In this document: piece by piece, positions 1-16,602 of the stretch
Layout of the letters: each line of letters opens with the position of its first letter
Position numbering within the stretch: position 1 is the stretch's first letter
DNA from: a virus
Lineage: Duplodnaviria; Heunggongvirae; Uroviricota; Caudoviricetes
IMG/VR virus record: IMGVR_UViG_2648501130_000005
Span: 1-17,970 of that record
Strand: one strand, 5' to 3'
DNA length: 17,970 nt
Made by a program: the position numbers and the translations under genes
The notes under the pieces: generated by a model
Told to the model about the DNA's origin: nothing
The model's database searches: none
The model's input: only the letters and a program-made list of their open reading frames with translations

Positions 1-2073
1 AGTTGCTAACAGTCTTGTATGGAGAATTCCACTAGATGTGTATGTATTGGTCGAATCACTATATCTATCAAGAAATAGACTGTTAAGTTGAGGGCTGTTG
101 TTCCTACCTAAGCCAAGATTCGTTCTGGCACCATCAACAGTTGCCGCATTAGTGCCTCCTTGTCCAATAGGTAATGGAACCCATGACGATCCGTTATGGC
201 AACCCCACAATCCAGATGTTGACACCTGAAGTCGTGGCGCTGATGGTGAGTAATTCGAATAAACGTAAGTAGTCGATTCGCCTTCTTCAATTCTTTCTGT
301 TAATACTATTTTTTTCCATACACTCCAACCTTGTGTGCTGGTATATATCCTTCTATAAAGAATTGATGAATTGTTATATACAAAATAGCTCTGGATACAA
401 CCATCACTACCATTAGCACCAGTTCTTTGCACTAACAATGCACCAGCAAGCTGTATCGGGTAATTTAGTTCTGGCTTTGCGTTGGCAGACATTGGTTGGT
501 AATAAAAACCGGCTGTAGTACCTTTTATATCGTTTAAGTTCGTATTCGCATCAAGGCCAGTTTTTGCTTCAAACATGACTTCAAGTTTAGAGCGCGCTGT
601 ACTTGCATCATTCGCCCCTGTGCCACCTTGCGCAACTGCGAGCGGTTGCCATCTACCAGCTTTAGGGTTAAATGCGCCCCACTGACCGTCAGCATCAACC
701 TGTAAGTAACAGCCGTCCGCCTGAACGTCAGTAGATAAAATGATGGTTCTTGTGTCGCTTGAACGCTGAAATCGGATAACCTCATCTTTTCTTGCGTGGC
801 GTGTCCATTGCGGGCCTATTGTCGGATTCCAGCGATAAGTATAAAGCGAGCGCGTAGCCCATCCCTGAAATACACCTGTATACGCTGGTGTTCCATCTAC
901 CTGACTAATAAACCCCGTAAGACTGCTTTCACCGGATGCAATCGATGGAAATCCTTTTGCATTACTCATAATGCGCATAAATCCGATATACCCTGATGGG
1001 TTGCCGGAAATATCAGGACAATCACGCGGGGCTGAGCCAAGACCGATATTATCGCCAACAATTAATTGCGCCTGGTTGCGATAATTAAGTGCGTCCGCCG
1101 CAGATTTCGCCGCGTTTGTTTCACTGGATTTAGCATTAGTTTCGCTGGCTTTAGCGTTTGTTTCGCTGCTCTTTGCTGCTGCCTCGCTATTTTTCGCGTT
1201 GGTTTCTGATTTTTTGGCTGCTGTCGCGGAGTTTGCCGATGCAGTTTGTGAGTCTGCTGCCGCCTGTGCGCTGTTACCCGCAATATAAAGGCGTCCGTCC
1301 TGCATCTGCTGCAGCTTCACTGCCCACATGCTGTTCAGGTTATTATTTGTATCAACCTGAACCTTCTGTATCTGCTGGATCGCTGCACTCTGGTCTTCCA
1401 GTTTCTTATTGACGGTCTGTGTTATTTCATTGCTGACATCCGTTATGGACGTCCTGATTTCAGTCAGGTCAGGCGCAAGCTGACCGTTATCAATCTGCGT
1501 CCACAGCTCCTGAGCCAGATGGGTTTTCCCTATCCGGATATTAAACGGGCGCGGCGGCAGGTTATCCACCACCACCGAGGCCAGATACTGCGAGGTGGTT
1601 TTGCCCTTAATGGTGATGTCTTTTTCCGTCACCCAGCCACCATTACGCTGTATCTGAACCAGCAGGCGAACTTCCGACGGATTCCGGTCCCCCTTTGAGG
1701 TGGTTTCCACCAGTGCCTGCACGCCGAAGGTAAAGCGCAGACGGTCGATGTTTGCAGACGTAATGGTGCGGGTGATCGGCGTGTCATATTTCACTTCCGT
1801 ACCCAGCACCGTCTCGGAGCCGGAGGATTCAAACCCCTCCGGCGGTGTCTGCTCCTGCTCACCGGCACGGAACACCACCGTGACACCGGAGATGTTGGTA
1901 TTCCCCTCAGTGTCCAGCACCGGCGTACTGTTCAGCAGCACGCTTTTTAATCCATCCACCGGACCTTCAACCGGCCCTTCGCTGATGGCATCGATCACAC
2001 TCAGCAGCTGCGTGGACTTCAGGTTGTCCTTCGCTTCGCGCGGGGTATGCCCCTTACTGCTGCCTTTACCCAT
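1..2073 (-). CDS. Tail tip / side tail fibre chimeric protein, 3'-partial (runs past window start): lambda J-like N-terminus (~186 aa) followed by fibre-type repeats
   Basis: ATG at 2073-2071, preceded by GGAG/GAGGA. I checked all 691 in-frame triplets down to position 1 and found no stop; it is missing from the ORF track only because no stop lies inside the window. N-terminus MGKGSSKGHTPREAKDNLKSTQLL... matches my recollection of lambda gpJ. Later SETNAK-type repeats and two QGGTGA/QGGTNA...AR.NLGL motifs are typical of enterobacterial side tail fibres. Confidence 0.8.
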   Translation of the reverse strand, partial: MGKGSSKGHTPREAKDNLKSTQLLSVIDAISEGPVEGPVDGLKSVLLNSTPVLDTEGNTNISGVTVVFRAGEQEQTPPEGFESSGSETVLGTEVKYDTPITRTITSANIDRLRFTFGVQALVETTSKGDRNPSEVRLLVQIQRNGGWVTEKDITIKGKTTSQYLASVVVDNLPPRPFNIRIGKTHLAQELWTQIDNGQLAPDLTEIRTSITDVSNEITQTVNKKLEDQSAAIQQIQKVQVDTNNNLNSMWAVKLQQMQDGRLYIAGNSAQAAADSQTASANSATAAKKSETNAKNSEAAAKSSETNAKASETNAKSSETNAAKSAADALNYRNQAQLIVGDNIGLGSAPRDCPDISGNPSGYIGFMRIMSNAKGFPSIASGESSLTGFISQVDGTPAYTGVFQGWATRSLYTYRWNPTIGPQWTRHARKDEVIRFQRSSDTRTIILSTDVQADGCYLQVDADGQWGAFNPKAGRWQPLAVAQGGTGANDASTARSKLEVMFEAKTGLDANTNLNDIKGTTAGFYYQPMSANAKPELNYPIQLAGALLVQRTGANGSDGCIQSYFVYNNSSILYRRIYTSTQGWSVWKKIVLTERIEEGESTTYVYSNYSPSAPRLQVSTSGLWGCHNGSSWVPLPIGQGGTNAATVDGARTNLGLGRNNSPQLNSLFLDRYSDSTNTYTSSGILHTRLLAT

Positions 2074-2095
2074 TCCTCACGCTCCATAAATGACA

Positions 2096-2115
2096 AAACC
2101 GCCCGCAGGCGGTTT
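2096..2115 (-). terminator. Hairpin between the I-like stop and J-like start (perfect 8-bp stem, 4-nt loop, T-rich tail on minus strand)
   Basis: AAACCGCC cgca GGCGGTTT; on the minus strand the stem is followed by TTTTGTCATTT. Same intergenic arrangement as I recall for lambda I-J; may be an attenuator or stability element rather than a full terminator. Confidence 0.4.
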
Positions 2116-2133
2116 CACATAAAACATTTTGCA

Positions 2134-3060
2134 TCAGCGACCAATCACCACAACCTGACCACCGTCCCCTTCGTCTGCCGTGCTGATCTCCTGAGAAACC
2201 ACGCGAGACCCCACGCGCATTTCCCCGTACAGAACAGGCAGAACATTGCCCTGGGCAACCATGTTATCCAGTGAGGAGAAATAGGTGTTCTGCTTACCGT
2301 TATCCGTTGTCTGTGTACGGGGAGTTCTGGCTTTCGGTGCCAGCATCTGCGCCACACCACCGAGCACCATACTGGCACCGAGAGAAAACAGGATGCCGGT
2401 CATACCACCGGTCCCAATGGCTGCCCCCCATGCTGCAAGGGTGGCTCCGGCGGTAAAGAATGATCCGGCAATGGCGGCAGCCCCCAGGACAATCTGGAAT
2501 ACGCCACCTGACTTGGCCCCGGCGACTCTGGGAACAATATGAATCACAGCGCCATCAGGCAGAGTCTCATGTAACTGCGCCGTTAATATGTGCTGTTTGA
2601 GTTGACTTTCTTTTGCCGCATAGCCGTCACTTTTGCCGCGATATGGCCCCTGGTAATGTTCAGCAAACAGAACGCGTTCTGTTGCGGGAAAATATGCGCG
2701 CAGACTTTCTTTATTACACCCGTTCCATCGTCCGGACGGCTTCGCCCAGATAATATGGTTAAGAACGTTGAAACGTTCACGCATCATGATCTCGATATCA
2801 GATGCGAGGCGATGTCCACAGAACAGGTAAAGGCTTCCGGCAGGTTTCAGCACCCGCCAGAACTGAGCCAGACAGTGGTCCAGCCACTTCAGGTAATCTT
2901 CGTCCCCTTTCCACTGATTGTCCCAGCCGTTGGGTTTCACCTTGAAGTACGGCGGATCGGTAACAATCAGGTCAATGGAATCATCAGGCAGGGACTGAAT
3001 AAAATGCAGGCAATCAGCGTTGATTAAATCAACACTGTTTATTTTTACAGTATTTTTCAT
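2134..3060 (-). CDS. Chimeric ORF: N-terminal ~165 aa of a beta-class DNA methyltransferase (DPPY motif, no AdoMet-binding motif) fused in frame to the C-terminal ~140 aa of tail assembly protein I
   Basis: N-terminus has DLIVTDPPYF (motif IV) but no FxGxG motif follows. From about residue 166 the sequence (TAQLHETLPDGAVIHIVPRVAGAKSGG ... GGQVVVIGR) matches my recollection of the lambda gpI C-terminus. Junction at about nt 2582/2583. Probably a non-functional fusion. Confidence 0.65.
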   Translation of the reverse strand: MKNTVKINSVDLINADCLHFIQSLPDDSIDLIVTDPPYFKVKPNGWDNQWKGDEDYLKWLDHCLAQFWRVLKPAGSLYLFCGHRLASDIEIMMRERFNVLNHIIWAKPSGRWNGCNKESLRAYFPATERVLFAEHYQGPYRGKSDGYAAKESQLKQHILTAQLHETLPDGAVIHIVPRVAGAKSGGVFQIVLGAAAIAGSFFTAGATLAAWGAAIGTGGMTGILFSLGASMVLGGVAQMLAPKARTPRTQTTDNGKQNTYFSSLDNMVAQGNVLPVLYGEMRVGSRVVSQEISTADEGDGGQVVVIGR

Positions 3061-3209
3061 GGATCAGTAAGCGTAACTCTGGTAGGCTCACTCTGCTTTT
3101 GCGCTAAAGCAGTGGGCCGTGGTTCGCTTGTGACCAGTAAGCATGAGCGAATGGCTGGCAGGTGCTACCAACACCCACCAGCCGCCCATTTTCACAAATT
3201 AAAAGCCCT

Positions 3210-3404
3210 TCATTGCTGAAGGCGTCTGTAACAGCCGAACTGGTAATCTGCCAGCCCCGCCATAACCAACTGGGTCAGTATTAACTGACAGCGTTCGCGT
3301 GAAAGGTATGTGTTTTGTGCAATCTCCCCGACTGTTGCCGGTTCGATGCTTAATTCATTAAAAACAACTTTCGCCGTTTCTGTCATATCTTGCTGTTTTA
3401 GCAT
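3210..3404 (-). CDS. Small putative winged-helix DNA-binding protein (64 aa), function unknown
   Basis: 64-codon ORF with AAGGT 11 nt upstream of the ATG; the central segment ATVGEIAQNTYLSRERCQLILTQLVMAGL looks like a helix-turn-helix. Divergent from the KAP NTPase gene. Start could instead be the internal Met at 3386. Confidence 0.45.
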   Translation of the reverse strand: MLKQQDMTETAKVVFNELSIEPATVGEIAQNTYLSRERCQLILTQLVMAGLADYQFGCYRRLQQ

Positions 3405-3527
3405 GTCTTTTTACCTTCATGGTTAACATGACATACCAATAACTCTTGTCTAAAAAGCCAGCAAGATAAAAAATCAGTATTCACTACCACCAGCGTGTTT
3501 ACCGTACTGCACCAGGTTTACAGGTAC

Positions 3528-3553
3528 AAAAAAACCCGCTCGACAGCGGGTTT
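3528..3553 (-). terminator. Intrinsic terminator on minus strand (8-bp perfect stem, 5-nt loop, U-run)
   Basis: Plus strand reads AAAAAAA-CCCGCT-cgaca-GCGGGTTT, so the minus-strand RNA has the stem followed by a run of U. No annotated minus-strand gene lies immediately upstream. Confidence 0.5.
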
Positions 3554-3676
3554 AAGCTGTGTGGCGAAGTAACCACTCTTAACAGATTACAAGAATTTTT
3601 GCGGACCGCGTTAATGATTTTTAATCCCAAAGTCGTATTATTCGTTTTTTACTGTAGGAGTTAATAGGTTTATATT

Positions 3677-5008
3677 ATGTTAGATACACTATCTTTCACT
3701 GAACGTGACGAGTTCCAACGAAGAAACATCGCTGAAAATATCATCAAGTTGCTAAAACCAGAGGCAGACATTTCACCACTGGTAATAGACGGCGCATGGG
3801 GAACAGGGAAAACAGAATTTAGTATCAAACTGAAAAATCTCATTATTGAGCAAGAAACTGAATCTAAAGTTGTTTATATTGATGCCTTTAAAGGGGATCA
3901 TGCAGAATCTCCATTACTTCTCATAACCTCTGCAATTGCCAGCATTTTGCCTGAGGAAGAAAAACAACACTTCATTAAGAGATCTCTTCCTGCAATTCGC
4001 TTTGGTTTAAAAACGGTACTAAAAGCTGGTGCAGGTTGGTTTTTACGACAGGAGGCTAGTGAAGTTGCCGAAGAATTCCAAGATGCGATGAAGAAAGCAA
4101 GCAATGCAGCAATAGATGGGACTATTGAAAATTTGCTTGAAGACCATATGGACTCAGAGAAAAACATAAATTCACTTAAATCCTGCATCGAAAGCATATC
4201 AAAAAATCAAAAAATCGTAATTATAATTGATGAATTAGACCGATGTAAGCCGAGTTTTTCAACAAATGTCATTGAAACAATAAAACACATTTTTGACATC
4301 AATAATGTCTTTTTTATTTTAGTTACAAACACAGAACAATTAAAAGCATCTATAAATCATATTTATGGTTATAGCATTAACTCACAAAAGTATCTTGACA
4401 AGTTTATAAAATATACCATCACGCTTCCAGATACATGTTTGATAAATGGTCACAACGTATGTAAAGCCTCTGTTATATATTGGGATTACCTTGTAGAAAA
4501 AACAAGGTTATTGAATAAAATCAATAGATTATCAGGTTACTTTATCCGTGATTTAATTCAACGAACCAACTTATCATTACGTGAAACACAAACATTTTCA
4601 CGCAATCTTAACATTTTCCAACTGTTAAACGACGATGAGAACAAAAGCAGTGATCCTTTAATAAATATGATCTTTGTCGTAGCTGCCTTCATACATTGCT
4701 TTGGTAACAAGGAAAAACTAAAACAAGAAATTACCGCTGAATCTATATCTTATTTAGCAGACCTGCTTAACATAAAAGAAATACCTTATTCTTATGAGAG
4801 AAGATCGCAAATCCCTGAAATATCGATTGTATTCTTCGGAATAATTAAAGACAGTATTACTCTTAATGAGCGATTTGCCCCTAAAAGTGATGAAGAACTT
4901 AAAAAATTCACAAATGTTTATACTGATTATGAACACATAAATTTTTGGAGTACTACACCCAGAGAGTTATTGATAAAATATATTAATCAAATGTCATTCA
5001 TCCAGTAA
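3677..5008 (+). CDS. KAP-family P-loop NTPase (443 aa)
   Basis: Walker A DGAWGTGKT and the KAP-typical Walker B region IVIIIDELDRCKP. Visibly AT-rich with long A/T runs compared with flanking genes. Ends at the hairpin at 5011-5035. Confidence 0.85.
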   Translation: MLDTLSFTERDEFQRRNIAENIIKLLKPEADISPLVIDGAWGTGKTEFSIKLKNLIIEQETESKVVYIDAFKGDHAESPLLLITSAIASILPEEEKQHFIKRSLPAIRFGLKTVLKAGAGWFLRQEASEVAEEFQDAMKKASNAAIDGTIENLLEDHMDSEKNINSLKSCIESISKNQKIVIIIDELDRCKPSFSTNVIETIKHIFDINNVFFILVTNTEQLKASINHIYGYSINSQKYLDKFIKYTITLPDTCLINGHNVCKASVIYWDYLVEKTRLLNKINRLSGYFIRDLIQRTNLSLRETQTFSRNLNIFQLLNDDENKSSDPLINMIFVVAAFIHCFGNKEKLKQEITAESISYLADLLNIKEIPYSYERRSQIPEISIVFFGIIKDSITLNERFAPKSDEELKKFTNVYTDYEHINFWSTTPRELLIKYINQMSFIQ

Positions 5009-5036: not shown

Positions 5037-5402
5037 TTAAACGTCCAAATCTAATGTTAGATCTAGCATGGAAAGGCAGCCATCAATAAATCCTTCGGCT
5101 AGCTGTATTTCTATACGTATCAATTTCTCATCTTTTTTACGAGCCTTGGCGAGCTTTCTTTTAGAGATACCGTATAGGTAATGGGCAACAAGAAGCGAAT
5201 GTTCGTCCGGCCTTTTTTGCTTTAGATGAGCAAGACAACCTTCAATAATTAAGGCATCACTATCCGAACAAGCCAAGCGTTTCTTGCTTGTATAGGGAAG
5301 AAGTCCCTTAAACCCAGCGGCTATAGGTGAATAATCAACGCCTGAACTATCACTCGCCGCCCATGCCCCCCAACGCTCCAGAACCATCTGAATATCACGC
5401 AT
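5037..5402 (-). CDS. Antitermination protein Q (QuuD-like lambdoid late-gene antiterminator)
   Basis: N-terminus MRDIQMVLERWGAWAA... is the signature I recall for E. coli prophage Q/QuuD proteins. ATG at 5402 with GGTGGAGA upstream; the track's first residue is a TTG one codon earlier. Confidence 0.8.
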   Translation of the reverse strand: MRDIQMVLERWGAWAASDSSGVDYSPIAAGFKGLLPYTSKKRLACSDSDALIIEGCLAHLKQKRPDEHSLLVAHYLYGISKRKLAKARKKDEKLIRIEIQLAEGFIDGCLSMLDLTLDLDV

Positions 5403-5419
5403 CAACTTTCTCCACCAAA

Positions 5420-8608: not shown

Positions 8609-9096
8609 TAAGCCCCCACGTAATTCCCTGAGAGATACCACTCTTCACCTGATGCAGCCCGCTTACTGCTTTTCCGTAAACACCGTTCACGACGCGCCAA
8701 AAAATTGTTTCGTTCTGGCAGGGAGTGGCTTTCACGGAATGCCGCCATCCACACCGTTGCAGCACGACGGTATAAGCCCCTGGACTCCAGTTCTTCCGCC
8801 TGGCGGGTCAGGCACAAAATCACCCGCGGGTCGTTAGTGCCGACATAGAAATTGCGCACAGGTCTGGTTTCACGAACTGGTTGTGGTTCCGGATCCTGCG
8901 CTCTCTCAGTCAGGCGCGGGAAATGTCTGTGTGTATCTCCTTCACAACGGTGAGCCACACGCCCACTCTGACGTAACTTGCTTGCTGACTGCAGAACGCG
9001 CTGCCGTGAGTAACCTGCAAAAGCATCCGCAATGTCTCCGGAAGTACAGCCCGGATGGGCTTCAATGAATTTCTGAACGTCATTCAAAAGACTCAT
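8608..9096 (-). CDS. Putative transcriptional regulator with PerC-like C-terminal region
   Basis: AEELESRGLYRRAATVWMAAF resembles the PerC/Pch core motif (LESAGFWRRAAARW type). ATG at 9096 with GGGGGTGA upstream, 2 nt after the replication gene stop. Confidence 0.55.
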   Translation of the reverse strand: MSLLNDVQKFIEAHPGCTSGDIADAFAGYSRQRVLQSASKLRQSGRVAHRCEGDTHRHFPRLTERAQDPEPQPVRETRPVRNFYVGTNDPRVILCLTRQAEELESRGLYRRAATVWMAAFRESHSLPERNNFLARRERCLRKSSKRAASGEEWYLSGNYVGA

Positions 9097-9098
9097 GC

Positions 9099-9869
9099 TC
9101 ACCCCCTGAATCCTGCCGGGATCTGGCTGTAGTCCACATTGTCGTAACTGGCTTTGAAGTACGGGTCTTCGCGTTTTTCTGTGTACGTGCTGACGGACGG
9201 CGATAAGCGCAGGGAAAGCTCATCCCATTTTTCCCGCAGCTTCGACGGGCTGAGCACGTTACGGCACCAGAACGGATCGCGGCTGACGCGGCTGTACATC
9301 TCGCAGATTTGTTTGTGAGTACGACCATCCTGCACACACATCAGGCGAATTTCGTTTGCCCAGGCTGTCCAGTTCGGTTCTTTGGGACGAACCACCTCGC
9401 CGTCACATTCGGCAGCCTGCTCGTACAGGGCGATGATTTTTTTCCAGAGCCACTGTGCGCAGGTCAAATCATCCTGCGTCCCCCACTGGCGCTTTTTAGG
9501 GCTGAATACAACCGCATCAGGATGGCGAGTTAAAAAATCCTGTTCATCCGTCTGCGTGTCCGGTTGCGAAGCGTCCGGACGAGAAGGTTTTTTATCTGAC
9601 GGATCATGTTTTGATTTTACTGACGGATCCCCGCCAGATTCTGACGGGTGAAAACCCGCTTTTTTGCCAGATTTCGACGCATCAAATTTTGACGGGTCAG
9701 ATTTTGATGCGTCAGATTTTGACGGGTCAGAATCTGACAGTTGAGAAAATGCCGCTGCCTGAAGCTTCGCAACGTTAAGCTGATAAACATTCGACGCATT
9801 GCGGTTACCCACGGTTAGCCTCATCGTTCTGTGGTTTCTGTTAATCGATTTATCCATTAGATTTTTCAT
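9099..9869 (-). CDS. Replication initiation protein (lambda O-like role) with internal iteron-encoded peptide repeats
   Basis: Sits directly downstream of cro. The central SDSDPSKSDASKSDPSKFDASKSG region is encoded by tandem DNA repeats. Start uncertain: ATG at 9869, 9857 or 9824; the track's first codon at 9926 is GTG and lies deep inside cro. Confidence 0.6.
   Translation of the reverse strand: MKNLMDKSINRNHRTMRLTVGNRNASNVYQLNVAKLQAAAFSQLSDSDPSKSDASKSDPSKFDASKSGKKAGFHPSESGGDPSVKSKHDPSDKKPSRPDASQPDTQTDEQDFLTRHPDAVVFSPKKRQWGTQDDLTCAQWLWKKIIALYEQAAECDGEVVRPKEPNWTAWANEIRLMCVQDGRTHKQICEMYSRVSRDPFWCRNVLSPSKLREKWDELSLRLSPSVSTYTEKREDPYFKASYDNVDYSQIPAGFRG
9590..9740. repeat. Iteron array (putative origin of replication) inside the replication initiator gene
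   Basis: At least seven tandem ~15-17 bp copies of a (C)AGATTTTGACGGGTCA-like unit, e.g. attttgacgggtcag / attttgatgcgtcag / attttgacgggtcag. Analogous to the lambda ori iterons inside gene O. Confidence 0.6.
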
Positions 9870-16526: not shown

Positions 16527-16602
16527 TGGTGCCGATAATAGGAGTCGAACCTACGACCTTCGCATTACGAATGCGCTGCTCTACCAACTGAGCTATATCG
16601 GC
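16527..16602 (-). tRNA. thrW: tRNA-Thr (anticodon CGU)
   Basis: Reverse complement reads GCCGATATAGCTCAGTTGGTAGAGCAGCGCATTCGTAATGCGAAGGTCGTAGGTTCGACTCCTATTATCGGCACCA: 7-bp acceptor stem, GTTCGA T-loop, anticodon loop with CGT, encoded CCA. Confidence 0.9.

Follow-up and report, generated by a model that had tools for sequence, protein, structure and literature searches.

Is the 308-residue open reading frame at positions 2134..3060 (minus strand) the scar of a deletion that removed the late genes of a prophage, a protein family in its own right, or an error of assembly? The frame lies in a window of 17,970 nucleotides, the whole stretch of DNA analyzed here (IMG/VR virus record IMGVR_UViG_2648501130_000005). 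A preliminary description made from its sequence had read the frame as a methyltransferase 5' fragment fused in frame to the 3' fragment of tail assembly gene I. The evidence below makes it very probable that an illegitimate (non-homologous, end-joining-type) deletion in a lambdoid prophage at thrW gave rise to the frame as a chimeric pseudogene, an instance of ordinary prophage decay.

The Deletion Junction

The frame runs open from a native start to a native stop codon, and its change of source falls between window positions 2587 and 2586, as defined by BLAST and by a base-by-base three-way alignment. The alignment compared the window with CRE10, which carries the intact methyltransferase parent, and with isolate 2-101, which carries the intact gene I parent. 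Codons 1-158 (2587..3060, minus strand) are the 5' fragment of the methyltransferase gene, and the last 150 codons plus stop (2134..2586, minus strand) are the 3' fragment of gene I, both assignments resting on BLAST and Pfam. Reading continues across the join without a shift, from ...KQHI at the end of the methyltransferase codons to LTAQLHETL... at the start of those of gpI. The N-terminal part contains …TDPPYF… and the gpI-like C-terminal part reads …LTAQLHETLPDGAVIHIVPRVAGAKSGG…. Both halves are collinear with the genes of intact relatives, which bears out the fusion as first described. The breakpoint given in that description, 2582/2583, was 4 nt off, but the junction does lie within the interval 2560-2600 that it had flagged.

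Searches from either side converge on the same base. When positions 1800-3500 were compared with 5,426 complete E. coli genomes, all methyltransferase matches began at window position 2587, which is base 788 of the query (limits 787/788), and one genome, that of YD786, spanned the junction at 99.9% identity. With positions 1-2590 as query, isolate 2-101 is 100% identical on the I/J side up to 2586, where its match stops. Among phage genomes, SfV matches from 2587 onward (97.3%), and lambda and many lambdoid phages match up to 2586 (98.3-100%). The BLAST search of the 2134-3060 region proposed in the preliminary description therefore settled the breakpoint at 2586/2587.

The microhomology whose presence it had proposed to check is absent. 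In gene sense, with a slash at the breakpoint, the methyltransferase parent reads …AAACAGCACATA/ATGGCACCG…, the gene I parent reads …GTCAGCACGTCCGGG/TTAACGGCGCAG… and the window reads …AAACAGCACATA/TTAACGGCGCAG…. In the three-way alignment 0 nt are common to both parents at 2586/2587, and the join is blunt as well as in frame. A CAGCAC hexamer occurs 3 nt and 7 nt upstream of the two breakpoints, not at the join itself. No IS or long repeat lies at the junction, where there is no extra sequence between the parental segments; the nearest IS1 is about 5 kb past the left end of the window.

Two Truncated Genes

The methyltransferase half is 99.9% identical to the intact gene for a 350-aa N6/N4 DNA methyltransferase in CRE10 and 97.3% identical to the DNA methyltransferase gene of phage SfV. 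The late-region N6/N4 methyltransferases of SfV and related lambdoid phages have the same first 158 codons (97-99.9%), including motif IV, but they keep a C-terminal stretch of 192 residues with FFMGSGS that the fusion lacks. The frame matches profile positions 1-104 of the 221 in Pfam N6_N4_Mtase (PF01555). Motif IV is retained as DPPY at residues 35-38 (TDPPY at 34-38). AdoMet motif I (FxGxG), represented in the intact protein by FFMGSGS near the C-terminus, is encoded downstream of codon 158 and is absent, and the target-recognition region has also been lost from this fragment of a beta-class N6/N4 methyltransferase. The combination first noted at this locus, DPPY without an AdoMet motif, is thus correct, and is accounted for by deletion of FFMGSGS and by a Pfam match covering only half of the profile.

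The gene I half is 100% identical to isolate 2-101 and to phage phiSTEC1575-Stx2k. Over positions 1800-2586, which take in the final 150 codons of I and the beginning of J, identity to lambda is 98.3%, and the resemblance to the lambda gpI C-terminus noted in the preliminary description proved sound. Most of the N-terminal Lambda_tail_I domain (PF06805) is gone: the match is limited to the last 27 of the 83 profile positions (57-83) and, at 23.7 bits, falls just short of the cut-off of 23.8. Lambda gpI is complete, whereas the fusion lacks the first 40 residues of the 190-aa annotation of I, the kept part beginning at residue 41. Relative to the 223-aa lambda protein, about 73 N-terminal residues are missing. 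The glycine-rich C-terminal region and the C-terminus of gpI are present, followed at native spacing by J, which starts at 2073.

This J-like tail tip gene (1..2073, minus strand) is represented in the window by its 5' part and runs off the left end; it is annotated in YD786 as gpJ, of 1235 aa, and maps to the J and side-tail-fibre genes of CRE10. The gene is a chimera in its own right and bears older scars at ~1532-1534 and ~1275-1282. The 5' end of J (~180 codons) is followed by an internal piece of J, joined through GAT microhomology, and then by a side-tail-fibre-like part with a Peptidase_S74 C-terminus. The last of these joins lies at GCGGGTA/ACAGC, a TA-type GGGTA site, and the deletion of the WCHEC020031 type reuses the same site.

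Neither a Protein Family nor an Assembly Artefact

A frame that is open from native start to native stop could encode a natural two-domain protein, with a methyltransferase-like N-terminal and a gpI-like C-terminal domain, rather than the product of a deletion. A search of 5.8 billion proteins returned 2,115 homologues, and only one cluster among them spans both halves, with a single residue different. The others cover ~52% of the query (the methyltransferase part) or ~47-49% (the gpI part), and no diverged full-length homologue with both halves was found among the 2,115. Furthermore, each half has at least 99.9% DNA identity to part of a longer intact gene, and both Pfam domains are cut in their middle. 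A single near-identical full-length cluster is not what a protein family would leave, and this explanation is rejected as extremely unlikely. The many query coverages of 52% arise because the methyltransferase part of the query has that length and do not imply a hotspot.

The occurrence of the junction in only 1 of the 5,426 complete E. coli genomes might instead point to a sequencing or assembly chimera. However, separate NCBI, ENA and Logan assemblies include at least 24 contigs (in 30 index blocks) that code for exactly this fusion protein, always beside the same flanking genes, and the finished YD786 chromosome has the junction as well. At least 24 independent contigs are incompatible with an assembly error, and an artefact has next to no probability. 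Neither of the two outcomes named in the preliminary description as fatal to a deletion scar, a natural full-length family or an assembly error, was thus what the searches returned.

The RefSeq (PGAP) annotation of YD786 divides the same sequence into ASE18_RS27635 and ASE18_RS27640, a "DNA-methyltransferase, missing C-terminus" and a "hypothetical protein, missing N-terminus", which meet at the junction. The halves had therefore already been flagged as truncated, but that annotation gives no single open frame, no gene I identity and no reconstruction of the deletion.

The Missing Late Region

The same chromosomal site in CRE10, tRNA-Thr (thrW) next to proA, is occupied by an apparently complete prophage. 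In the window, the thrW gene (CGU anticodon; 16527..16602, minus strand) is the prophage attachment site and adjoins the integrase gene and proA. The early genes of CRE10 run in the order integrase; repressor and cro; O-like initiator; PerC; Dam-like methylase; RusA; KilA-N; DUF968; and Q. Q is followed by a KAP NTPase gene on the opposite strand, a 64-aa ORF and the 350-aa methyltransferase, and then by essD, rrrD, a lysis protein, nohD, terminase, portal, protease, decoration and capsid genes. The distal part comprises the tail genes through L, K and I, and then J, lom, stf and tfa.

Between the two breakpoints of the window, CRE10 has 18,940 bp (locus positions 18375 and 37316). This stretch holds the holin, endolysin, Rz/spanin, terminase, portal, protease, capsid, tail tube, tape measure, M, L and K genes and the start of I. 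These are exactly the functions (lysis, packaging, head and most of the tail) whose loss had been proposed from the window alone. Identity to CRE10 is 99.4% on the side running from the methyltransferase to the early genes and 96% on the I/J side, indicating that CRE10 is a close model of the parent prophage and not the parent itself. The length (~19 kb) and gene content of the deletion are accordingly estimates based on this close relative, and the loss may have occurred in several steps rather than one.

Several elements next to the fusion correspond to those of the intact prophage. A 64-aa ORF (WP_001355891.1, hypothetical protein; 3210..3404, minus strand) precedes the methyltransferase gene in intact and deleted prophages alike. 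Upstream of it, on the same strand as the fusion and between the 64-aa ORF and the KAP NTPase gene, lie a candidate late promoter (3664-3637), matching 9 of 12 positions, and a strong intrinsic terminator (3553-3532) with a 9-bp stem, 5 G-C pairs and a T run; together they occupy 3532..3664, and both are identified by consensus matches only. The layout resembles pR'-tR', and these consensus matches suggest that any transcription of the fusion would depend on Q. A Q-family antiterminator gene (PF06530) is present at 5037..5405 (minus strand), and the late operon that now holds the fusion would depend on it. The KAP-family P-loop NTPase gene (3677-5008, plus strand), which is also found in CRE10, lies between Q and the candidate late promoter and looks like an inserted accessory (moron) gene.

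Origin and Fate of the Fusion

One breakpoint of the deletion follows codon 158 of the late-region DNA methyltransferase gene, and the other leaves the final 150 codons of tail assembly gene I in place. Joining of the ends involved no microhomology, and ~19 kb was lost. That the two genes share a frame is probably a matter of chance, with a likelihood of 1 in 3. The product should be unable to methylate DNA, having neither an AdoMet motif nor a target-recognition region, and unable to act as gpI, since most of the N-domain is gone and there would be no tail to assemble. Loss of the AdoMet motif and truncation of both domains thus predict a protein that is catalytically dead and useless in tail assembly. 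The deletion may have been tolerated, or even favored, because the prophage can presumably no longer lyse the cell or form particles; the deleted prophage still has its immunity region, integrase, Q, KAP NTPase and Dam-like methylase. If the fusion is transcribed at all, it would be read from the candidate Q-dependent late promoter. The scar probably arose once and marks a clade of E. coli, in which further lineage-specific deletions appear to have followed.

Alternatively, the fusion could have been kept for a function, for example as a membrane-associated protein by virtue of the glycine-rich hydrophobic C-terminal part of gpI, or because loss of the C-terminal half of the methyltransferase was selected. 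The open frame, its identity across many isolates and the candidate late promoter and terminator upstream are compatible with such a role, as is the repeated truncation of the methyltransferase gene by independent deletions. An in-frame join is nevertheless expected one time in three, and the flanking DNA of the fusion copies is also 100% identical, which explains their identity by recent clonal descent. That all copies encode the same or a near-identical protein fits recent common descent, although purifying selection would look alike.

The repeated truncations also have a simpler explanation. The same methyltransferase N-terminal part has been fused by other deletions to fragments of Rz, endolysin, K, Lom, head protease, baseplate, J and tail-fibre-assembly proteins (P0006-P0021, P0051, P0056). 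Their breaks are scattered over residues 163-307 and their partners are unrelated, a pattern to be expected of a gene that is the first of appreciable size upstream of the lysis genes. Scattered breaks and varied late-gene partners indicate that in-frame methyltransferase fusions are common by-products of late-region deletions and not evidence of function. The same scatter led to rejection of a nucleotide-level hotspot in the methyltransferase gene. Retention for a function is accordingly improbable, and the fusion product is most likely an inert pseudogene, as judged from its sequence. Several of the methyltransferase junctions (P0014, P0015 and P0016) also cross over at a shared TA.

The scar is another instance of a well-known kind, the deletion-derived chimeric pseudogene of a decaying lambdoid prophage. 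The e14 ymfN locus (oweE'-'aaaE) of E. coli K-12 is likewise the result of a prophage deletion, which took out many genes and left two abutting gene fragments, from an O-like replication gene and from terminase, as a pseudogene. It differs from the fusion in the genes involved and in its junction, which lies at a TA-centered site (site A, discussed below) with ACCC microhomology, whereas the main junction of the window is blunt and lies elsewhere.

Ordered Decay in Related Strains

Sister strains carry different deletions of the same prophage, and its decay can therefore be ordered. The left flank, consisting of IS1A, a LEM-3-like gene, a tfa fragment and the chimeric J, is common to all strains compared except Survcare253, and the right flank of integrase, thrW and proA is common to all of them. 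In contigs of the L008 type (GCA_012384195.1) the methyltransferase-I scar is present and the early region is intact. The window departs from this state by one extra deletion of 1,124 bp, a second scar at 9805..9810 with TTACCC microhomology, and is otherwise 100% identical to it; L013 (GCA_021087585.1) shares both scars with the window. This second deletion took ymfL and ymfM/DUF4222, together with codons 1-78 of the O-like initiator gene.

Other carriers of the methyltransferase-I scar have lost different segments. YD786 has a different, adjacent deletion of 1,135 bp that joins PerC to the O-like gene, and the window and YD786 differ in 8667-9804, which shows that the window does not derive from YD786. 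The second deletion joins RusA to the O-like gene in L009, KilA-N to the end of ymfL in L015 and DUF968 to KilA-N in L016. Among strains without the scar, L, K and an intact I survive in isolate 2-101, where L is joined to the O-like gene; in WCHEC020031 and many related genomes it is J/stf that is joined to this gene; EC98 has J joined to ymfM/DUF4222; and Survcare253 is cut in rusA. These arrangements suggest that the old J/stf scars came first (in strains with J), followed by lineage-specific large deletions including the methyltransferase-I event, and last by small deletions in the O-like region. The expectation that the decay of the prophage could be reconstructed thus holds, as scar-bearing and sister strains together give the order of deletions.

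The scar provides a clean, datable marker and indicates that the prophage has lost the ability to lyse its host and make particles, and it defines an E. coli clade in which later decay steps can be ordered, which is useful if unsurprising. One metagenome contig (L014; ENA ERZ27293264 k141_14387) carries the identical fusion beside a different immunity and early region, of the ymfK/ymfT/ash type and with no Dam-like methylase. Either the early region was replaced by recombination after the deletion or the scar was transferred.

A Breakpoint Hotspot in the O-like Replication Gene

More interesting than the scar itself is that many independent prophage truncations, including those of the textbook K-12 prophages e14 and CPS-53, end at the same base of the O-like gene. 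The site, here called site A, lies in the O-like (HTH_36) initiator gene at codons 77-80 and reads CAGGGTA/ACCGC in gene sense (GCGGTTACCC in window orientation). Breaks fall within the same 10 nt in the second scar of the window, three other thrW variants, CPS-53, e14, the argU prophage of OHT76-1 and the e14-site prophage of 23CRST035. The K-12 junctions at site A join the O-like fragment to yfdP in CPS-53 (yfdO/yfdP) and to terminase in e14 (oweE/terminase). Besides positions 9805-9810 of the window, site A junctions lie at 22861-22867 in L001, 10270-10279 in L005, 5632-5637 in L009, ~4506 in L018, ~4509 in L019, ~4012 in L020, ~7805 in L021 and 6236 in L022. At least 45 distinct junctions with different partners use the site.

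A search seeded on the first 76 residues of the O-like initiator recovered 112 truncated or fused proteins, all of at most 133 aa. Divergence begins at residues 77-80 in 56 clusters (46 of them exactly after G78) and at residues 60-61 in 17, and the other 39 are scattered. The codon after G78 nearly always starts with A, which places the break at CAGGGTA/ACCGC. A second, weaker site reads ACGGCTA/TCGCA (codons 59-62). One junction deduced from protein sequence was checked in DNA and reads GCCAGGGTA/TGGTCAAAAATCC. Site A events are about 25 times as numerous as those at neighboring TAs, each of which has some, a ratio that comes from a search seeded on the O gene and is no measure against the rest of the prophage.

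Partner sites, where recovered, nearly always have TA at the crossover, often with identity of no more than 2-3 nt, and their flanks fit GG-N-TA-N-CC (GGNTANCC). Partner sites in rusA, terminase, DUF968 and the late methyltransferase gene recur in junctions with each of the two O-gene sites, in either orientation. This precision, the nearly obligatory shared TA and the reuse of partners suggest a site-preferring nuclease or recombinase, unlike random microhomology joining. If an enzyme were responsible for the breaks at site A, prophage inactivation would be partly directed and not purely random decay. No relevant description of a deletion hotspot in prophage O genes came up in literature searches.

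Could the process that acts at site A also have made the main deletion, in place of a random blunt join? On the gene I side the break does fall 1 nt short of the TA in CCGGGTTAACGG, a sequence similar to the GGNTANC(C) hot sites, and the methyltransferase side ends in ...CACATA in gene sense. However, the parents have no common TA at the crossover, exchange at a common TA could not produce CACATA/TTAACGG, and the methyltransferase side is without a GG-N-TA motif. A TA-centered, motif-associated origin of the main deletion is therefore improbable. The main junction, blunt and with no shared TA, is not of the site A type.

Two explanations of the preference for site A itself were rejected. DNA folding z-scores of about 0 argue against a hairpin or cruciform. 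Cleavage at GGTNACC (BstEII-type) does not agree with the other such sites in the window (6410, 6900 and 14614), which are not junctions, and a G^GTNACC cut does not fit the break GGTA/ACC.

A broader proposal, which we consider possible but doubtful, holds that the scar opens a reproducible route of decay. Once the genes for lysis and morphogenesis were lost, the prophage would be inducible and replication-competent but non-lytic, and possibly harmful through in situ replication or through ymfM. Its descendants would then repeatedly lose the O-like region by a nucleotide-precise, TA-centered cut-and-join at quasi-palindromic GGNTANCC-like sites. A precedent for the first part is the "replicative killing" caused by lambda prophage fragments with their late genes deleted, in work where selection yields survivors defective in O, P or ori (Hayes and colleagues, PMC6022878). 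Those strains, like the prophage in the window, keep the repressor, early and replication genes and lack the lysis and structural genes, and the natural descendants of the prophage then lose the O-like region. Unlike those strains, the window prophage still has its integrase gene, and killing by in situ replication is here a supposition. By analogy with these strains, losses of the O region could plausibly persist because in situ replication is selected against. The ymfM product is reported to be an SOS-inducible division inhibitor (bioRxiv 10.1101/2020.11.19.390815); on that description, selection against ymfM would be another plausible reason for their retention. Neither form of selection accounts for the single-base precision of site A.

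About 70 nt from site A, the O-like gene contains ~4.3 copies of a 15-nt repeat (CAGATTTTGACGGGT; window 9668-9731) that encode SDPSKSDASKSDPSK. By analogy with lambda O, these repeats are presumed to be origin iterons. Perfect GGNTANCC octamers occur at about twice the number expected for uniform base composition, with 21 against 10.4 in the 42 kb of the CRE10 prophage and 8 against 3.6 in the 15 kb of L008, an excess that may be an effect of codon usage.
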